Shown: positions 31,533-39,649, numbered from the stretch's first letter. The stretch: 51,064 nucleotides of DNA from a virus (IMGVR_UViG_2534681675_000014), one strand, 5' to 3'. Translations and numbers: made by a program. The notes: a model not told the origin generated them from the letters alone.

Positions 31533-32672
31533 ATGGCTGGAAATACCCTGACCGGGTTGATCCCGACTATTTATACCGCCCTGGATGTTGTATCCCGTGA
31601 GCAGGTAGGTTTTATCCCTGCGGTAGCAAAAAACGCAAAAGCTGACGCCGCAGCAAAAGATCAGACGGTAACCGCGCCAGTTGCGCCTGAGGCGAAAACC
31701 GAAGATATCGTACCGGGGCCGTCAGCTCCGAATACCGGTGATCAAAATATTGGCACTGTTGATGTAAAAATTACTAAATCCAAAATGGCACCGGTTAAAT
31801 GGAATGGTGAAGAACAACTGGCTCTTGGCCCTTCAGGGACTTACAACACCATTCTGGCTGATCAGTTCAAGCAGGCTTTTCGCGCCCTTGCAAACGAGGT
31901 TGAGGCTGATCTTGGTGCGTTGTATTTCGGTGCTTCCCGCGCCGTGGGAACCGCAGGGACAACGCCGTTTGGTGTTAAAGATGATCTTTCTGATGCTGCT
32001 CTGGCTCGTCAGGTTCTGGAGGATAACGGCGCACCGACAACCGATCTGCAGATGGTGCTTGGCTCCACTGCCATTGCTAATTTGCGCGGAAAACAGTCTG
32101 TATTGTTTAAAGTGAATGAATCCGGCACTGAACAGCTACTGCGTGAGGGCGTGTTGGGGCGTCTGGAGGGATTCAATATTCACAGTTCGGCAGGTGTGAA
32201 ACGAGCGCCAAAGGTTGCTGCAACTGGTTATCTCGTGAATGGAGAGAAAAAAGAAGGCGATGTTCTTATTTCCATTGATACTGGTTCGGGGAGTATTTCT
32301 GCAGGTCAGATTGTTACGTTCGCTGGTGATCCGAATCAGTATGTTGTGGCAGCAGCGACCAGCAATCTGATTACTCTTGCAGCGCCCGGACTGCGTCAGG
32401 ATCTGGCCGATGATACTGCCATCACAGTTGTTGGGGCCTTTACTGCAAATATGGCGTTTGATCGCAACGCGTTTCTGCTGGCATCCCGTACTCCGGCAAT
32501 GCCGGAAGGTGGCGATAATGCTGATGATGTAATGAATGTTACGGACCCGATTTCAGGGATTACGTTCCAGATTGCATTGTATCGTCAGTATCGCCAGGTG
32601 CGCTATGAAGTTGGACTGGCATGGGGTGTTTCATCAGTGAAGCCGGCACATGGTTGTCTGATTCTTGGTTAA
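31533..32672 (+). CDS. Major capsid protein
   Basis: 379 aa from ATG 31533 (AAGGA SD); position after scaffold. Confidence 0.7.
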   Translation: MAGNTLTGLIPTIYTALDVVSREQVGFIPAVAKNAKADAAAKDQTVTAPVAPEAKTEDIVPGPSAPNTGDQNIGTVDVKITKSKMAPVKWNGEEQLALGPSGTYNTILADQFKQAFRALANEVEADLGALYFGASRAVGTAGTTPFGVKDDLSDAALARQVLEDNGAPTTDLQMVLGSTAIANLRGKQSVLFKVNESGTEQLLREGVLGRLEGFNIHSSAGVKRAPKVAATGYLVNGEKKEGDVLISIDTGSGSISAGQIVTFAGDPNQYVVAAATSNLITLAAPGLRQDLADDTAITVVGAFTANMAFDRNAFLLASRTPAMPEGGDNADDVMNVTDPISGITFQIALYRQYRQVRYEVGLAWGVSSVKPAHGCLILG

Positions 32673-32894: not shown

Positions 32895-33290
32895 ATGATC
32901 ACTTACGTGACCTGTGATGACGTTGATAATGCGTTTGGGAACGCCTGGACGAGTGAGAACGCTAAAAATAAAGCTGTTTTAATGGCTAATGCCTGGCTTA
33001 ATGGCTTCAACCTGAAAATTAACCCATCCCGTATTCCGGAAGAGGTAAAACTTGCGGGAGCATATGCAGCCAGAATTGCCTCATTCGGTAAGTTGTTTCA
33101 GCAGAAAAATGATTCTGGCGTTGTTATCAGTAAAGCCGTGTCGGCTGACGGGGTCAGTGTATCGAAATCATTTTCTGAGTTGCCAGCAAACAGTACTGCA
33201 TTGCTTGAACCCGATTTACAGCTTGCGATAGCACTGCTGAAACCGTACGGACTTAGTCGCTCACAAGTCAGGGTTGTGAGGGGGGGATAA
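32895..33290 (+). CDS. Head-tail connector / head completion protein
   Basis: 131 aa; AGGAG SD; position in head-tail joining block. Confidence 0.5.
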   Translation: MITYVTCDDVDNAFGNAWTSENAKNKAVLMANAWLNGFNLKINPSRIPEEVKLAGAYAARIASFGKLFQQKNDSGVVISKAVSADGVSVSKSFSELPANSTALLEPDLQLAIALLKPYGLSRSQVRVVRGG

Positions 33291-33673: not shown

Positions 33674-34054
33674 ATGGCAAAGGCATGGGATATAGAACCG
33701 TCAATATTTGCCGGGATGATTGAGGAAGATGTGGGGCTGAAAATTCGCTACATCGCTATGCAGATTCTTACTGCTATTGATATTGCTGCTCCGGTTGATA
33801 CCGGACGTTTCAGAAATAACAACCTGGTGTCGTTACAGCATCCCGATTTTGGTATATCTGATAACGTGGATCCGAACGGTACGATTGCGGTTCAGCGTGG
33901 GATCGGGGTTATTTCGAAAGCTGCAAATTACGGAGTTATTTATATCCAGAATAACCTTCCTTATGCAGAGGCTCTTGAAAACGGTCATTCACAACAAGCG
34001 CCAACTGGCGTGTATGCCAACGCTTTTCATGGTGTTTTACAGGCTTACAAATGA
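33674..34054 (+). CDS. Neck/tail component (HK97 gp10-like)
   Basis: 126 aa; position. Confidence 0.5.
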   Translation: MAKAWDIEPSIFAGMIEEDVGLKIRYIAMQILTAIDIAAPVDTGRFRNNNLVSLQHPDFGISDNVDPNGTIAVQRGIGVISKAANYGVIYIQNNLPYAEALENGHSQQAPTGVYANAFHGVLQAYK

Positions 34055-34443
34055 CGTTTACTGAAATCAGAAATACGGTTATTTCCAGAATGACGGCACA
34101 GACGATTATTGATGGAAAAGACGTATTGTATCCGAACGCGCCAACGTTCGATCCTTCCGGTAAGTTAATCTGGGCGCGGTTAAGTAATATTCCCGGGCAG
34201 GCTGGAGTTAATGAAATTGGCGCGGGGCCGATTGTTTATCGCACGGGGATAATCATTATTCAGTTATTTGTCCCCGCAGGTTCTGGTTCAAAACTCATTA
34301 CTGAGACAGCCGATAAATTGCGGGAACTGTTTGAGTTTCAGGATGACGATCGTCTCAGTTACCAGGCTGTTTCCTCAATAGCCGTTGGCGAAAAGAATGG
34401 CTGGTTCCAGCTTAATCTTCAAATTCCATATCGCGCGCTCTAG
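34051..34443 (+). CDS. Tail terminator (gpU-like)
   Basis: 130 aa; immediately upstream of the major tail protein. Confidence 0.5.
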   Translation: MTFTEIRNTVISRMTAQTIIDGKDVLYPNAPTFDPSGKLIWARLSNIPGQAGVNEIGAGPIVYRTGIIIIQLFVPAGSGSKLITETADKLRELFEFQDDDRLSYQAVSSIAVGEKNGWFQLNLQIPYRAL

Positions 34444-34469: not shown

Positions 34470-35432
34470 GTGAGTTCAGGTGCAAAGGTTATCTCGGCAT
34501 TTATCCGGGAGACGGTTGCAGGCACTACGCCAGCAAGTGGTGACTGGAGTTTATTAAAACGCACAAGCTGGGGAGTAAAACCCACCCAGAATAAAGGCGA
34601 AAATAATGAGATTGGTGGCTCCCGGATGGCTCAGGGGGCGACGCCTGGCACTGTGGATGTCGGCGGTGATGTTGGTACCAAATTTCGCTGGGGTCAACAT
34701 GATGATTTTCTTGCATCCTGTTTCGGCGCGGAATGGTCAGGCGATTCTCTGACAATGGGGAATGAGCGAATAACATTTTCTCTAGCGACCTATGCGTCCG
34801 ATGTCGGAATTGCCTCTGTCGTCAGAGGAGCGCAGGTTGGCTCATGGAAAATGCAGATCCCTAACGACGGCGATATTACAGCGACCGTAACCTTTGCCGG
34901 ACTGGACTGGGAATCAAAGGCCGATGATACGAATTTTATCAAAGGCGAACCTGTGGATAGTGCAGGAAAGCTACGTTATTCGTTTAAGGAGGTTTCAGCA
35001 GTAAGCCTGAATGGTGTTGCCGGAGGTAACGGTTTTTGTATCGACAGTTTTGATATTCAGTTCGATAACAAACTCCAGACACAGCGTTGTATCGGGACTG
35101 GCTCGCCTTATGCAGGAGCAAATATTCCGACTACTTTTACACCGTCCGGTACGGTGACGCTTTCATGGTCTAAAGCCGCGTGGGAAATCTGGAGTAAAAC
35201 ACTGACTGGAGAAACAGTTCCGTTCAACTTTACGCTTTCGAATGGAGAGGGGGCATACACTTTCAGTTTCCCGAAGGTTCAGGTGTCAGGTGAATGGCCT
35301 GATGGGGGTAATAGCGACATTATCCAGGTTCAATTGAGCATTACCGCAGCAGATGAAGCACCTACGATAACCAGAAAAAAAAATTCCCCGGCTGCCGTGA
35401 TCGCAAAAGCCAGTGCTGAGGCGATTAGTTGA
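34470..35432 (+). CDS. Major tail tube protein (gpV-like, with C-terminal Ig-like extension)
   Basis: 320 aa; upstream of the G/GT chaperone pair and tape measure. Confidence 0.7.
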   Translation: MSSGAKVISAFIRETVAGTTPASGDWSLLKRTSWGVKPTQNKGENNEIGGSRMAQGATPGTVDVGGDVGTKFRWGQHDDFLASCFGAEWSGDSLTMGNERITFSLATYASDVGIASVVRGAQVGSWKMQIPNDGDITATVTFAGLDWESKADDTNFIKGEPVDSAGKLRYSFKEVSAVSLNGVAGGNGFCIDSFDIQFDNKLQTQRCIGTGSPYAGANIPTTFTPSGTVTLSWSKAAWEIWSKTLTGETVPFNFTLSNGEGAYTFSFPKVQVSGEWPDGGNSDIIQVQLSITAADEAPTITRKKNSPAAVIAKASAEAIS

Positions 35433-35480
35433 TTTTCCGTTATTCCTCCTGTGGTACTGCCCTACAGGGGGACGCATTGA

Positions 35481-35942
35481 ATGAGGTTATGGATGTTTAT
35501 TCTTAATCAGAAAATTATCATTGGTGGAGAACGCTGGTTTACGCCAATGAAGGACTTAAAACCTGTAGACGGGTTAAAACTGTTGGTGGCAAGCAGCGAT
35601 AACGATCAGTATCGCTCCCGTAATGCATTAATCCGTCGCCACATTGAGAAAATGGATGCCAGTTTGCACGTCGGAACGAAGGAGTTTGATATTTCAAAGG
35701 TTTCCGAGGTGGATTCTGTTGATGATTTACTCATTGATAATGCCGCTCGTTATCTGCTGAAAGACTGGAAAGGGGTTGGTGAACTGGTTAATGGTGTTGA
35801 GGTTGCACTGGAATATACGGCAGAACGAGGGATCGCGCTGCTTAAGCAGAATCCAGAGTTGTACTGGCAGATCCTTGCAGAAGCAGCCAGCATCGCCCAG
35901 GGTAAAGAGCAGCAGAAGCAGGATACGATAAAAAAGCCATAG
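35481..35942 (+). CDS. Tail assembly chaperone G
   Basis: 153 aa ending just after slippery A_AAA_AAG; between V and tape measure. Confidence 0.7.
   Translation: MRLWMFILNQKIIIGGERWFTPMKDLKPVDGLKLLVASSDNDQYRSRNALIRRHIEKMDASLHVGTKEFDISKVSEVDSVDDLLIDNAARYLLKDWKGVGELVNGVEVALEYTAERGIALLKQNPELYWQILAEAASIAQGKEQQKQDTIKKP
35930..35936 (+). other. Programmed -1 ribosomal frameshift slippery heptamer A_AAA_AAG (G to GT)
   Basis: Heptamer in G frame 2 codons before the stop; the -1 frame stays open to 36250. Confidence 0.65.
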
Positions 35943-36250
35943 CTGCCCAGCGGTGGTTATCGGAGTTCGGGGGAGAAAGGGGGGAAAAGGCAAGATGGAA
36001 GCGAGAAAAACTCAGGTTGCCACCGATACCGGAACCAGAAATAGACCCGGTGCTTAAGGAGTTGTTGTACGCCTATTCGGTAATATCCCGTGCCCGACGT
36101 TATGCTGGAATGGCTGGGGTGCCTTTGCCTTTATCTCTGACAGAGATAAATGAATATTTAGCCACTCATCCGGTATTGATTGAGCGCGATGAATTTGAAG
36201 CAGTGATCTTTGCACTGGATGACCAGTATTTTCAGGAGCAGTGTGTGTAG
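35936..36250 (+). CDS. Tail assembly chaperone T segment (expressed as G-T fusion by -1 frameshift)
   Basis: -1 frame open from 35906 to 36250; no independent strong start. Confidence 0.6.
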   Translation, partial: AIAAQRWLSEFGGERGEKARWKREKLRLPPIPEPEIDPVLKELLYAYSVISRARRYAGMAGVPLPLSLTEINEYLATHPVLIERDEFEAVIFALDDQYFQEQCV

Positions 36251-36415
36251 TTGTTAATTACGTACACTCTGTTACAGAGATGTGATGGTGTCTTTAATTA
36301 AATCGATGATGCTCCTGGAGAAAAGCATTGCGTGGCCTCGTAATCGCTATATCTACTATTATGTCGCCTGAAACCCACTTCGCGGTGGGTTTTTTGTTGT
36401 CAGGAGTTTTAATAA

Positions 36416-39400
36416 ATGGCAGAGCAAACCTCGCGTCTCGCAATAATTATTGATAGCACTGGAGCGAAAAATAATGCTGACAATCTGACCTCCTCATTAG
36501 TCAAAATGACGCAGGCTGGGGAAACTGCTGCAAATAGCGCAGGGAAAGTGACTAAGGCAACAGAAGATGAGAAGAACGCGCTCGCAAAATTAAAAGCAGC
36601 TATTGATCCAGTTGGTGCCGCAATTGATACTGTCGGTCGACGCTATTCTGAATTAAAGAAATTTTTCGATAAAGGGCTTATTGATAAAGAAGAATATGAA
36701 TTTCTTGTCCGTAAACTTAATGAAACCACAGAGGAATTGAGCGGGGTTGCGCAAGCGCAGAGAGAAGCCGAGAAGGCCGGAAAACTTGCTGCCGCCCAGC
36801 AGGAAGCGCAGGCTCAGGCCTTTCAAAGAATGCTGGACAAGATCGACCCTCTGGCTGCGGCGCTAAGAAATCTTGAACAACAGCATGATGAACTTAATGC
36901 TGCGTTTGCATCCGGGAAAATAAATGGTTCTCAGTTTGAGAATTATAGCCGAAAAATACAGGAAACACGGCGAGAGCTTATCGGAGAGGCTCAGGCAGAG
37001 CGAGAAGCAGCAAAAGCGCATGATGAACAGGTTGTTGCTTTGCAACGTCTGATTGCTCAACTTGATCCTGTCGGAACTGCTTTTAATCGTCTGGTAGAAC
37101 AACAGAAACAGCTCAATGAAGCAAAAGCTAAGGGGATGCTTTCTCCTGAAATGTATGAGGAGCTTTCTGGAAAACTTCGTGCTATGCGGAGTGAGCTTGA
37201 GGTTACTCAATCACAATTAAGCAAAACCGGAATGTCGGCAAAACAAACGGCTTTTGCTATGCGCATGTTGCCTGCACAAATGACGGATATTGTTGTTGGG
37301 TTGTCCACTGGTCAGTCACCATTTATGGTGTTAATGCAGCAGGGCGGCCAGCTAAAAGATATGTTCGGTGGGATTGGCCCGGCGATCAAAGGTGTAGGTT
37401 CTTATGTGCTGGGATTAGTTAATCCTTTTACCCTGGCCGCAGCAGCCGTTGGGGTCTTAGGACTGGCTTACTATAAAGGCTCTCAGGAGCAGGACGAATT
37501 TAATAAATCTCTTATTCTTACCGGAAATCAGTTGGGGACAACCAGCGGGCAATTGGGCGATATAGCTCAACGTGCCGGGAATGCGGCTGATTCGACAACT
37601 GGTGCTGCGGCGGCAGTATTAAATCAGCTTGTGCGTTCGGGAAAGGTAGCGAGCAGTTCGCTGGAGCAAGTGACGACAGCGATAGTAAAAACGAGCGAAG
37701 TAACAGGAATATCAACCGAACAACTGGTTAATGACTTCAATGAAATTGCAAAGGATCCTGTCAGTGCCATATCAAAACTTAATGATCAGTACCATTTTCT
37801 GACACTTGCGACTTATAACCAGATTAAGGCGCTACAGGATGAAGGGAACCAGCAGGAGGCCGCCCGCATTGCGACAGAAGAATACTCATCCTCAATGATC
37901 CAGCGCACCAACCAGATTAAAGAAAATCTTGGTTATCTTGAGACTGCATGGAAAGCTGTCGCAGACTCCGCAAAATGGGCATGGGATTCCATGCTGGATA
38001 TTGGCCGTGAGACCTCCCTTGATCAAAAAATCTCAGATGTTCTCCGTCAAATTGATGAAATAGAAAAAAATACCCGACCCGGAGTTTTCGGGTTAGGTGG
38101 CATTGGAGATGGCGGAGCTCAAAATAAAAGGCTGGCACGATTAAAGCAGCAATTGGGCGTACTTCAAGCAGAAAAAATTGCTCAGGACGTACTAAATTCA
38201 TCAATAAACGATTACAACAAGCGACAACAGGAAGGAATTGAACTCAGACAGAGAGCAGATGCCTTTTCAAAACAATATCAGACCCGGGAGCAGCAGAGAG
38301 CTAGTGAACTTGCAAAACTGGAAAAGCTAAAGAATCAGTATTCAAAGGAAGAATATAATAATCTTATCGCTCAAATAAATGAGCGTTATAAAGATCCAAA
38401 GCAACCAAAGGCGAAAGGTTATTCTGATGATGCAGCCCAACGAATGATTGATCATCTGAATCAACAGAATGCGTTACTAAGTTCACAAGCTGAGTTGACC
38501 GTTAAATTAAGTTCCTCTGAACAGGAACTGGTTAAGTGGCGTCAGCGGATTGCCGACCTAGAGTCACGACCATCAACGAAATTAACCCAGGATCAGAAAT
38601 CGCTTCTCTTACACCGGGAAGAAATAACCGCGTTGATGGAGAAAAATGTTGCGATTGAAAAAAATAACAGGCTAATCAAGGAATCCGCCGAAATAACAGC
38701 ATGGCGTGATTCATTGCAGGCTTCGATTGATAATCGTCAGCAGGGGTATGATATTCAGATTGCTGGTTATGGGGTTGGCGATAAAAATCAGCAACGCCAG
38801 CAGGAATTACTGCGGATTGAACATGGATATAACAATCAGCGTTTGCAACTTGAACGTGACTATGCAGATAAATCCCGTGGAATGTCAGATCATGTTTTTC
38901 AAGAGAAAATGCAGGCTCTGAATGATGCTCTGGAACGGGAAAAAGAAATTGTCAGACAGAAAAACGAGCAGCTCGATATTCAGGCAGGAGACTGGGTTAG
39001 TGGTGCCTCCCAGGGATTCAATAACTGGCTGGATGACACTAAGGATATCAGTGAGCAGATAAAATCAACCACGACTCAGATGTTTGATGGGATGACCGAT
39101 GCGCTGGGTGATTTTGTCACGACAGGCAAGGCAAATTTTCGTTCTTTCGCTACTTCCGTGATTTCGGATCTTAGTCGAATAGCATTAAAGGCTTCAATTA
39201 CTGGGATTTTCGACAGCATTAGTAACAGTTCTTCTGGGGGGATTTTAGGAACTATCGGGAGTGCTATTAGTAAATTTATTCCGAATGCAAAGGGCGGTGT
39301 TTATGAGTCTCCGTCATTGAGCACGTATTCGAACGGTATTTATGATTCCCCGCAATTTTTTGCTTTTGCAAAAGGGGCTGGTGTTTTTGGTGAGGCTGGA

Positions 39401-39649
39401 CCGGAAGCTATTATGCCATTAACACGAACTTCCGATGGTTCTCTTGGTGTCAGAGCTATTAATAGTAAAAGTGGTAATGGAGGCGGAGATATTACCTATG
39501 CCCCTGTATACCAAATCACTATTCAAAATGACGGCCAGAATGGAGAGATTGGCCCTCAGGCAATAAAAGCACTTATGGGGATGGTTGATCAGCGGGTGCA
39601 GGGCAATCTGTTAAATATGCGACGTGATGGGGGAATGTTAAGTGGCTAA
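36416..39649 (+). CDS. Tail tape measure protein
   Basis: 1077 aa, coiled-coil-rich; position after G/GT. Confidence 0.9.

Follow-up and report, generated by a model that had tools for sequence, protein, structure and literature searches.

Is a tail assembly chaperone of this virus made in two forms, the longer one by ribosomes that change frame near the end of its gene? The question was raised by a preliminary description of the window, i.e. the whole stretch of 51,064 nucleotides that was analysed (IMGVR_UViG_2534681675_000014), which had proposed a G/GT chaperone pair with a programmed -1 frameshift. We are highly confident that the locus is a lambda-type G/GT programmed -1 ribosomal frameshift in the tail module of an intact Rac-type prophage. 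The proposal was supported by synteny, by a match to PHROG 313, by a -1 frame relation conserved among relatives, by a missing start for T, by a slip site that is either conserved or replaced, and by a precedent in Acinetobacter phage vB_AbaS_TRS1. Every architectural feature of the lambda G/GT system that could be tested was found in the window.

In a first view of the locus, the flanking genes and signals were assigned as follows.

34051..34443, + strand: tail terminator gene (Pfam Phage_tail_terminator_5, E 4e-08; PHROG 179 "tail terminator", E 3e-41).
34470..35432, + strand: major tail (tube) protein gene, 320 aa (full-length match to Pfam Phage_tube_2, E 1.1e-31; RefSeq "phage tail tube protein").
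36370..36403, + strand: terminator-like hairpin followed by a T-run, found by a terminator scan (10-bp stem, 4-nt loop, TTTTTTGTTG tail).
36416..39649, + strand: tape measure protein gene, 1077 aa (TMP_2, E 3e-81; Tape_meas_lam_C, E 4e-26; TMP_4, E 2e-24; PHROG 24).
Downstream of 39642: lambda-like M, L and K homologues (M from Pfam Phage_min_tail; L and K from ORF sizes and RefSeq names).

The G/T pair had been placed between the genes for the major tail protein and the tape measure protein, and this position was confirmed with Pfam, which matched Phage_tube_2 before the pair and TMP_2 after it. The window carries a complete head-tail module that includes a P22-like capsid, a lambda-like tail tip, Lom and tail fibres; trkG and ynaK are also present. 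T is separated from the tape measure gene by a gap of 165 nt (36251-36415), which hosts the terminator-like hairpin. We regard this hairpin as context and do not count it as part of the frameshift device. The equivalent gap holds an inserted Lom/Ail gene in E. coli MB07081 and two to five inserted ORFs in Klebsiella, Pseudomonas and Acinetobacter phages.

Three features make up the proposed frameshift device.

35493..35942, + strand: G gene, tail assembly chaperone, zero-frame product (PHROG 313, E 4e-46).
35930..35936, + strand: slippery heptamer A_AAA_AAG, the candidate -1 shift site, seen in the sequence and kept at the junction in 78 of 80 IMG/VR loci.
35936..36250, + strand: T extension in the -1 frame, 104 codons (AIAAQRWLSEF...QEQCV) plus TAG 36248-36250, from the translation (PHROG 1189, E 1e-36), predicted to be made solely as the C-terminal portion of GT.

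The G ORF itself covers 35481..35942 on the + strand and, according to the sequence, the ORF list and the translation, ends with CAG GAT ACG ATA AAA AAG CCA TAG (QDTIKKP*), the TAG being at 35940-35942. Its product comprises 153 aa if counted from ATG 35481 and 149 aa if counted from ATG 35493. Comparative data favour ATG 35493, which is almost certainly the real start, since this codon has a GAGG Shine-Dalgarno sequence 5 nt upstream, since residues W15 and P18 are conserved, and since the G frame of IMG/VR loci L050-52 opens exactly at MFIL.... In the G alignment, W15 and P18 lie in the N-terminal part, upstream of the start used by RefSeq (TTG 35583), and the resulting 119-aa "YdaY" model omits 30 conserved residues. 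The RefSeq start is inherited from the deletion remnant in K-12 and is 5'-truncated for intact prophages. At the other end of the protein, the lysine encoded by AAG at the junction is among the five invariant columns of the alignment, and the G tails beyond it vary freely in length.

We then inspected the junction between the two frames. A heptamer A_AAA_AAG had been reported at 35930..35936, where the G frame reads ATA AAA AAG close to the TAG at 35940..35942, and both the sequence and the translation agreed with this. The heptamer is in the X_XXY_YYZ phase of G, with one sense codon (CCA) before the TAG, and its AAA AAG (Lys-Lys) in the zero frame becomes AAA AAA in the -1 frame. The -1 frame had been described as open from the heptamer to 36250; this held true in the ORF list and the translation, in which it is open from as early as 35906 up to TAG 36248-36250 and reads GCC ATA GCT... 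after the slip. G and T overlap by 37 nt, and A_AAA_AAG is the sole in-phase canonical heptamer in this overlap. Its 3' neighbour is CC, a feature that is confounded because these bases belong to GCC, the codon for the first Ala of T. The conceptual GT fusion reads ...QDTIKK|AIAAQRWLSEF...QEQCV and is 252 aa long from ATG 35493 (256 aa from ATG 35481). The sequence QQKQDTIKKAIAAQRW falls within the G|T junction region of this conceptual fusion.

The bare pattern of a heptamer followed by an open -1 frame has no statistical significance, and it is synteny and comparison that carry the case. We counted heptamers of the form X_XXY_YYZ that were in phase, no more than 15 codons from the stop and followed by at least 60 open codons in the -1 frame, and found about 5 cases among 163 open stretches in the window. 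The remaining cases were mostly ordinary gene overlaps or non-coding or out-of-frame ORFs. AAAAAAG itself is common, with 28 copies in the window versus 16.7 expected. Rarity of the motif was for these reasons rejected as evidence. Two further frameshift candidates were also discarded: TTTAAAG at 32106, for which the -1 frame is an out-of-frame ORF within the capsid gene, and GGGGGGA at 33281, which is part of an ordinary overlap with the next gene (ATG 33290).

T might be an independent small gene that is translated from a start of its own, either TTG 36017 (77 aa) or GTG 36050 (66 aa), with no frameshift involved. The gene tracks agree with this explanation: the ORF lister shows T solely as a separate 77-aa ORF, as the preliminary description had stated, which opens at TTG (36017..36250), and RefSeq likewise has a separate "hypothetical protein" of 77 or 66 aa. 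Moreover, the T core (PHROG 1189, Phage_TAC_18-like) is located downstream of both starts. However, the 27 codons between the heptamer and TTG 36017 are already conserved at the amino acid level and show substitutions biased towards third positions. This was seen in a coding-constraint test of the 81 nt (35936-36016) that precede every potential start of T, in which the window was compared with Klebsiella/Flyfo phages. The differences were distributed over T-frame codon positions 1, 2 and 3 as 6, 7-8 and 14-15, and amino acid identity in the T frame was 18-19/27. For the other two frames, identity was 7-9/26, and stops were present in at least one of those frames in every relative. Only in the T frame do these 81 nt show the evolution of coding sequence.

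Consistent results were obtained from an alignment of the open T frames, in which the conserved part sets in right at the lysine of the junction, whose column is one of nine that are invariant. The junction reads KK|AIAAQRW, KK|AIEAQKW, RK|VIEAQEW, GK|AIARFQW or GK|V... in this alignment. The first ATG, GTG or TTG is found 25-89 residues into the open frame among the relatives, and the first start-like codon of the window is TTG 36017. In Acinetobacter relatives it comes only at residue 76-89 of ~118, past most of the domain, so that initiation from this shifting codon would remove most of the conserved domain. Inspection of the sequence revealed no Shine-Dalgarno element before TTG 36017 or GTG 36050. 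T has no start codon of its own at the place where its conservation begins. An independent T would also leave the strict -1 relation and the conserved slippery site unexplained, and we consider it very improbable.

The frame relation expected for a -1 frameshift was found throughout the relatives. Each of the 13 annotated relatives (27-100% G identity) had T in frame -1 with respect to G; the set was made up of E. coli variants and of Klebsiella (~64% identity), Erwinia (55%), Pseudomonas (~27-32%) and Acinetobacter (~20-30%) phages. The same relation was observed in 78/80 IMG/VR loci; of the two exceptions, one has an indel inside T and in the other G was unmatched. The 43 Pseudomonas-type and 80 Acinetobacter-type loci analysed displayed the same junction geometry. 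Over 43 distinct junction contexts the position of the heptamer was constant, and it was the G stop that moved, being located at +7, +10, +28 or +82 nt, counted from the first base of the heptamer. In loci L050-52 the G stop is lost (TAG to TTG), which gives G a 30-aa out-of-frame tail and leaves T intact.

The composition of the slip site was more variable than its position. IMG/VR locus L067 reads GTG GGA AAG TCT TAG, and thereby has G_GGA_AAG at the identical position. G_GGA_AAG, the heptamer of lambda itself, was found in 80/80 Acinetobacter-type and 7/43 Pseudomonas-type loci, and the remaining 36 Pseudomonas-type loci have the non-canonical G_GAA_AAG. Many of the G_GAA_AAG loci have a T-frame stop 6 nt before the site and the G stop 10 nt after it, which confines the shift to ~19 nt. 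Erwinia phage Gungnir39 has GCA AAG TAA at the junction. The only family-wide invariant is A_AAG, corresponding to the junction lysine, and the preceding P-site triplet has changed several times, being AAA in enteric prophages, GGA in Acinetobacter and some Pseudomonas phages, GAA in most Pseudomonas relatives and GCA, beside a stop codon, in Gungnir39. Across ~200 loci, the slip site is conserved or functionally replaced. In E. coli, A_AAA_AAG is the most shift-prone heptamer, G_GGA_AAG is also highly shift-prone, and CC is the most shift-prone 3' context (PMC5009743). A_AAG is the minimal -1 shift site in this host, and its use at A_CGA_AAG and G_CGA_AAG has been cited (PMC5009743).

The variation of the slip site also bears on the notion that GT arises by transcriptional slippage, RNA polymerase dropping one A in the A6 run and the ribosome not slipping at all. 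There is indeed a run of six A at the site, and transcriptional slippage on A/T runs is known for frameshifted products in bacteria and IS elements (PMC5009743). This route is disfavoured because the homologues keep the junction without a homopolymer: those with G_GGA_AAG, G_GAA_AAG or GCA_AAG do not have a sufficient run, yet retain the tRNA-Lys A_AAG core. In addition, A_AAA_AAG with the right codon phase is a textbook site of ribosomal slippage, as in dnaX. A run of six A is also less than E. coli RNA polymerase usually needs to slip efficiently, about 8-9 or more being typical. We hold transcriptional slippage to be as improbable as an independent T, and ribosomal slippage remains the preferred reading.

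We further investigated which protein families the two products belong to. G matched PHROG 313 "tail assembly chaperone" at profile positions 13-149/258 (E 4e-46), and the conceptual -1 fusion lengthened this match to 13-246/258 (E 6e-51), indicating that the profile already includes fused GT proteins. The T core matched Pfam Phage_TAC_18 only below the cut-off (E 5e-4, 20.7 vs 27 bits; 3/11 homologues). Homologues bear a precomputed PF27119.1 match. No match of G was found in the local Pfam copy or in NCBIfam, and PDB sequence searches that started from the fusion protein or from profiles of G and T returned nothing significant. For G, AlphaFold2 was run on an alignment of 33 sequences (57-95% identity), and the resulting model was unusable (mean pLDDT 44). 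Lambda G, which is Phage_TAC_2-like, gave no BLASTP alignment with the window G at E <= 100, and lambda T was compared with the T profile by hhalign at a probability of 0.2%, i.e. without detectable similarity. Since neither protein resembles lambda G or T detectably, the label "chaperone" rests on PHROG naming, synteny and architecture.

Stimulatory elements were sought on both sides of the heptamer. Folding of 35937-36020 yielded a weak, G-U-rich hairpin directly after the heptamer that was less stable than shuffled sequences (z +1.5), and RNAalifold on 20 diverged junctions gave -2.3 kcal/mol with 0 compensatory pairs. An Rfam scan of 35400-36500 detected no frameshift element; its sole match was sub-threshold and terminator-like (36370-36393). 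No conserved stimulatory RNA structure was found. Upstream, an AGGA (35920-35923) precedes the heptamer by 6 nt and is retained in most enteric relatives. We do not claim it as a Shine-Dalgarno-like stimulator, given that it overlies conserved Gln-Asp/Glu codons and is absent in loci L014 and L067 and in Acinetobacter relatives. Its distance of 6 nt from the heptamer also counted against such a role, the Shine-Dalgarno-like stimulator of dnaX being spaced by about 10 nt. Lambda G/GT is not known to need a stimulator either.

Of 5,426 complete E. coli genomes, about 1,074 contained the region, in most cases with an identity of >=99%. The window carries the intact form of the tail module of Rac, the prophage that is cryptic in K-12. 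E. coli K-12 is 100% identical to window positions 35591-36420, which correspond to ydaY (b1366) and the start of ynaA, a remnant of the tape measure gene; the heptamer of K-12 lies at NC_000913.3 1425968-1425974. Salmonella phage SPF_0923 has 99.8% DNA identity, and its G and T are 100% identical in protein, which indicates that the module works in a real virion producer. Several Escherichia vB_EcoS phages have the same genes at 98.2% identity.

The K-12 copy could suggest that heptamer and open -1 frame serve no purpose here and are either a non-functional relic or present by coincidence in a prophage undergoing decay. Indeed, the same DNA persists at 100% identity in the defective Rac remnant, where function is impossible, and the bare pattern is not rare. 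Against this, the head-tail module in the window is complete and phage isolates possess the same genes. T is, furthermore, under purifying selection across genera, and the conservation or functional replacement of the slip site over the ~200 loci would be unexpected of a relic. We therefore rate this explanation as the least credible of the alternatives, with hardly any chance of being correct, and retain the programmed frameshift.

Annotation of the locus does not reflect such a frameshift. RefSeq records contain "YdaY" and sometimes a 66-aa hypothetical protein, GenBank phage records contain two hypothetical proteins, and none of the E. coli or phage records of this Rac-type element that we examined annotates a frameshift or a fusion. 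A collection of ~15 billion public protein sequences contains neither the 252-aa nor the 256-aa fusion as an exact entry; G and T occur in it separately as "YdaY" or "hypothetical protein". Apparent in-frame GT proteins did come up, and we rejected them as annotated frameshift products: P0031 stems from a rare deletion between GCAGAAGCAG repeats, and P0032 and P0033 look like assembly errors. The literature on ydaY holds incidental mentions only, with nothing on function or frameshifting.

The following course of events is proposed. Most ribosomes would translate G (35493..35942) up to the TAG and yield the 149-aa chaperone. A minority would slip back by one base with AAA AAG (35931-35936) in the P and A sites, where the single E. 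coli tRNA-Lys, which pairs better with AAA than with AAG, would allow both tRNAs to re-pair on A_AAA_AA. Such ribosomes would next read GCC (35936) and continue for 104 codons in the -1 frame to TAG 36248, producing a 252-aa GT. We infer the production of the GT fusion, the G:GT ratio and the binding partners of the two proteins. By analogy with lambda, the tape measure protein would become covered with G domains, and the less abundant T domain would recruit the tube protein, which might then polymerise around the tape measure. Neither chaperone would be retained in the virion if lambda is a valid guide.

It is conceivable, although we think it rather unlikely, that the P-site triplet preceding the invariant A_AAG acts as an evolutionary rheostat that tunes G:GT for each host. 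The GT fraction of the window would then far exceed the ~3% of lambda, with a different stoichiometry. A higher fraction would be expected under this idea because the window combines the shiftiest heptamer of E. coli and the most shift-prone 3' CC with no stimulator. If the idea is true, chaperone stoichiometry would differ for the tube and tape measure pair of the window.

The biology of the locus is textbook and not surprising, and its value lies mainly in annotation: the lambda-style -1 frameshift described here is an ordinary, previously unannotated instance of a well-known kind. The element is found in roughly one-fifth of complete E. coli genomes and, as a fossil, in K-12. Recognition of the frameshift assigns a function to the K-12 y-gene ydaY, as a remnant of the tail assembly chaperone G, and corrects the start of ydaY in intact prophages. 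It also reveals a predicted GT product that is missing from the annotation of >1,000 E. coli genomes. Moreover, the locus offers studies of frameshift efficiency a clean natural A_AAA_AAG site without apparent stimulators. Around the invariant A_AAG, the P-site triplet has been exchanged over the whole family, which makes for an attractive comparative data set, with no conceptual surprise.

Among known systems, G/GT-type chaperone pairs with a programmed -1 frameshift are reportedly a class that goes back to Xu, Hendrix and Duda in 2004 and in which G and a minor GT product are both made and both required to assemble tails, and the "spiral" TAC fold is said to come from Pell and colleagues in 2013. 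The closest architectural counterpart of our locus is gpG/gpGT of lambda. In both phages, two overlapping ORFs lie between the major tail and tape measure genes, T is in the -1 frame without a start of its own, and a heptamer ending in A_AAG precedes the G stop by a few codons. The downstream tail module of the window also contains homologues of lambda M, L, K, I and J. The two systems differ in the heptamer (A_AAA_AAG here, G_GGA_AAG in lambda) and in the tube protein, which is here from a different family (Phage_tube_2). Whereas T of lambda overlaps H, a gap of 165 nt with a terminator-like hairpin precedes the tape measure gene here, and lambda G and T have no sequence similarity to their counterparts in the window that BLASTP or hhalign could detect. 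Work on lambda gpG/gpGT (Levin, Hendrix & Casjens 1993; Xu, Hendrix & Duda 2004, 2013, 2014), as summarised in PMC5009743, has reported that the G and T domains bind the tape measure and major tail proteins, respectively, that the G:GT ratio is ~30:1, and that G/GT frameshifting is widely conserved.

Acinetobacter phage vB_AbaS_TRS1 provides a distant but true homologue in gp18/gp19, the T parts being ~36-39% identical. It has the same -1 architecture, with a shift site at the homologous junction lysine, and gp19 is a precedent for the joined product, annotated as a frameshifted CDS, "putative tail assembly chaperone". In contrast to the window, TRS1 uses G_GGA_AAG, its G runs 85 nt past the heptamer and is only ~20% identical, and extra genes are found between T and the tape measure gene.

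The shift site itself is best compared with that of E. coli dnaX (tau/gamma), which has the identical A_AAA_AAG, read by the single tRNA-Lys (mnm5s2UUU) with a -1 tandem slip (PMC5009743). However, dnaX has strong stimulators, namely an upstream Shine-Dalgarno-like element and a downstream stem-loop, and no conserved counterpart was found here. The outcome differs as well, since the shift in dnaX leads to early termination and that in the window to an extension of 104 codons.

Finally, ydaY (b1366) of the K-12 Rac prophage consists of the same DNA as our locus, including the heptamer and the whole T frame. Unlike in the window, deletion has removed from K-12 the 5' portion of G together with every head and tail gene that lies upstream, and the tape measure gene of K-12 is truncated (ynaA). 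These deletions and the truncation make the K-12 copy a fossil, of which the window carries the intact module.

The start of G, the tail assembly chaperone gene, was examined by setting its annotation against the conservation of the residues upstream of the annotated start, in the following region of the window.

35481-35600, plus strand: N-terminal region of G

In intact prophages, RefSeq/PGAP names G "protein YdaY", a product of 119 aa starting at TTG 35583, and this model is copied from the remnant left by the deletion in K-12. Ahead of TTG 35583 lie 30 residues that are kept across genera, with W15 and P18 invariant, and in relatives the frame begins at MFIL... The true start of G is thus almost certainly ATG 35493, giving a protein of 149 aa; ATG 35481 is a less likely start. 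In K-12 itself (NC_000913.3, 1425377-1425980), an internal deletion of Rac has brought the ParB-like gene ynaK up against the middle of G, at window 35591. A 246-aa "ParB N-terminal domain-containing protein" (P0069), present in some E. coli records, combines ParB and G-family domains (PF02195 plus PF27119) and looks like a chimeric ORF across the Rac ynaK-G deletion junction. The precomputed Pfam column assigned PF27119.1 to every G homologue and a search of G against our local Pfam-A copy gave no match; YdaY/G-like proteins evidently belong to a family added to Pfam more recently.

The other end of G varies. In the IMG/VR loci L050-L052, the G stop codon TAG is changed to TTG at the position equivalent to window 35940-35942, which lengthens G by 30 aa, out of frame through the T region (PLPPSGGYRSSGEKRVKRQ...). 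The slippery heptamer and T, the -1 frame extension, are unbroken, and the precise C terminus of G is thus not critical. Separately, we observed a rare natural variant from E. coli, a protein of 240 aa (P0031; one contig, 5 member sequences), in which G is joined to T in frame (...QILAEA|GYDKKAIAAQ...) via a deletion between two GCAGAAGCAG repeats, at the equivalent of window about 35875-35925. Since such an allele would produce GT, the predicted frameshift fusion, alone and free G would be absent, it offers a natural test of the need for a G:GT ratio.

Downstream of T, two features precede the tape measure gene.

36251-36415: non-coding gap of 165 nt separating T from the tape measure gene
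36370-36393: terminator-like hairpin within the gap, with a 10-bp stem, followed by a T-run (TTTTTTGTTG tail)

A terminator is annotated in this gap in the record of Acinetobacter phage TRS1. E. coli MB07081 carries an Ail/Lom gene inserted there, and phages of Klebsiella, Pseudomonas and Acinetobacter have two to five small ORFs inserted at this place. The gap looks like a moron insertion slot within the late operon.

The shift site itself differs among relatives. In Pseudomonas phiPSA1-like loci (L098-L143), the junction lies at locus position about 1501; among Pseudomonas-type relatives, the non-canonical G_GAA_AAG occupies the homologous junction in 36 of 43 and G_GGA_AAG in the other 7. 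In many of these loci, stops on either side limit the shift to ~19 nt, one in the T frame 6 nt upstream and that of G 10 nt downstream. Because of this prevalence and the confining stops, G_GAA_AAG appears to be routinely used as a shift heptamer; its P-site re-pairing requires G-U at the middle position. The junction of Erwinia phage Gungnir39 (L004, 1984-1995; GTC GCA AAG TAA) lacks a canonical heptamer, and A_AAG alone directly abuts the G stop codon. This arrangement suggests that one tRNA slips in the P site, with an empty A site or the stop as the stimulus ("shifty stop").
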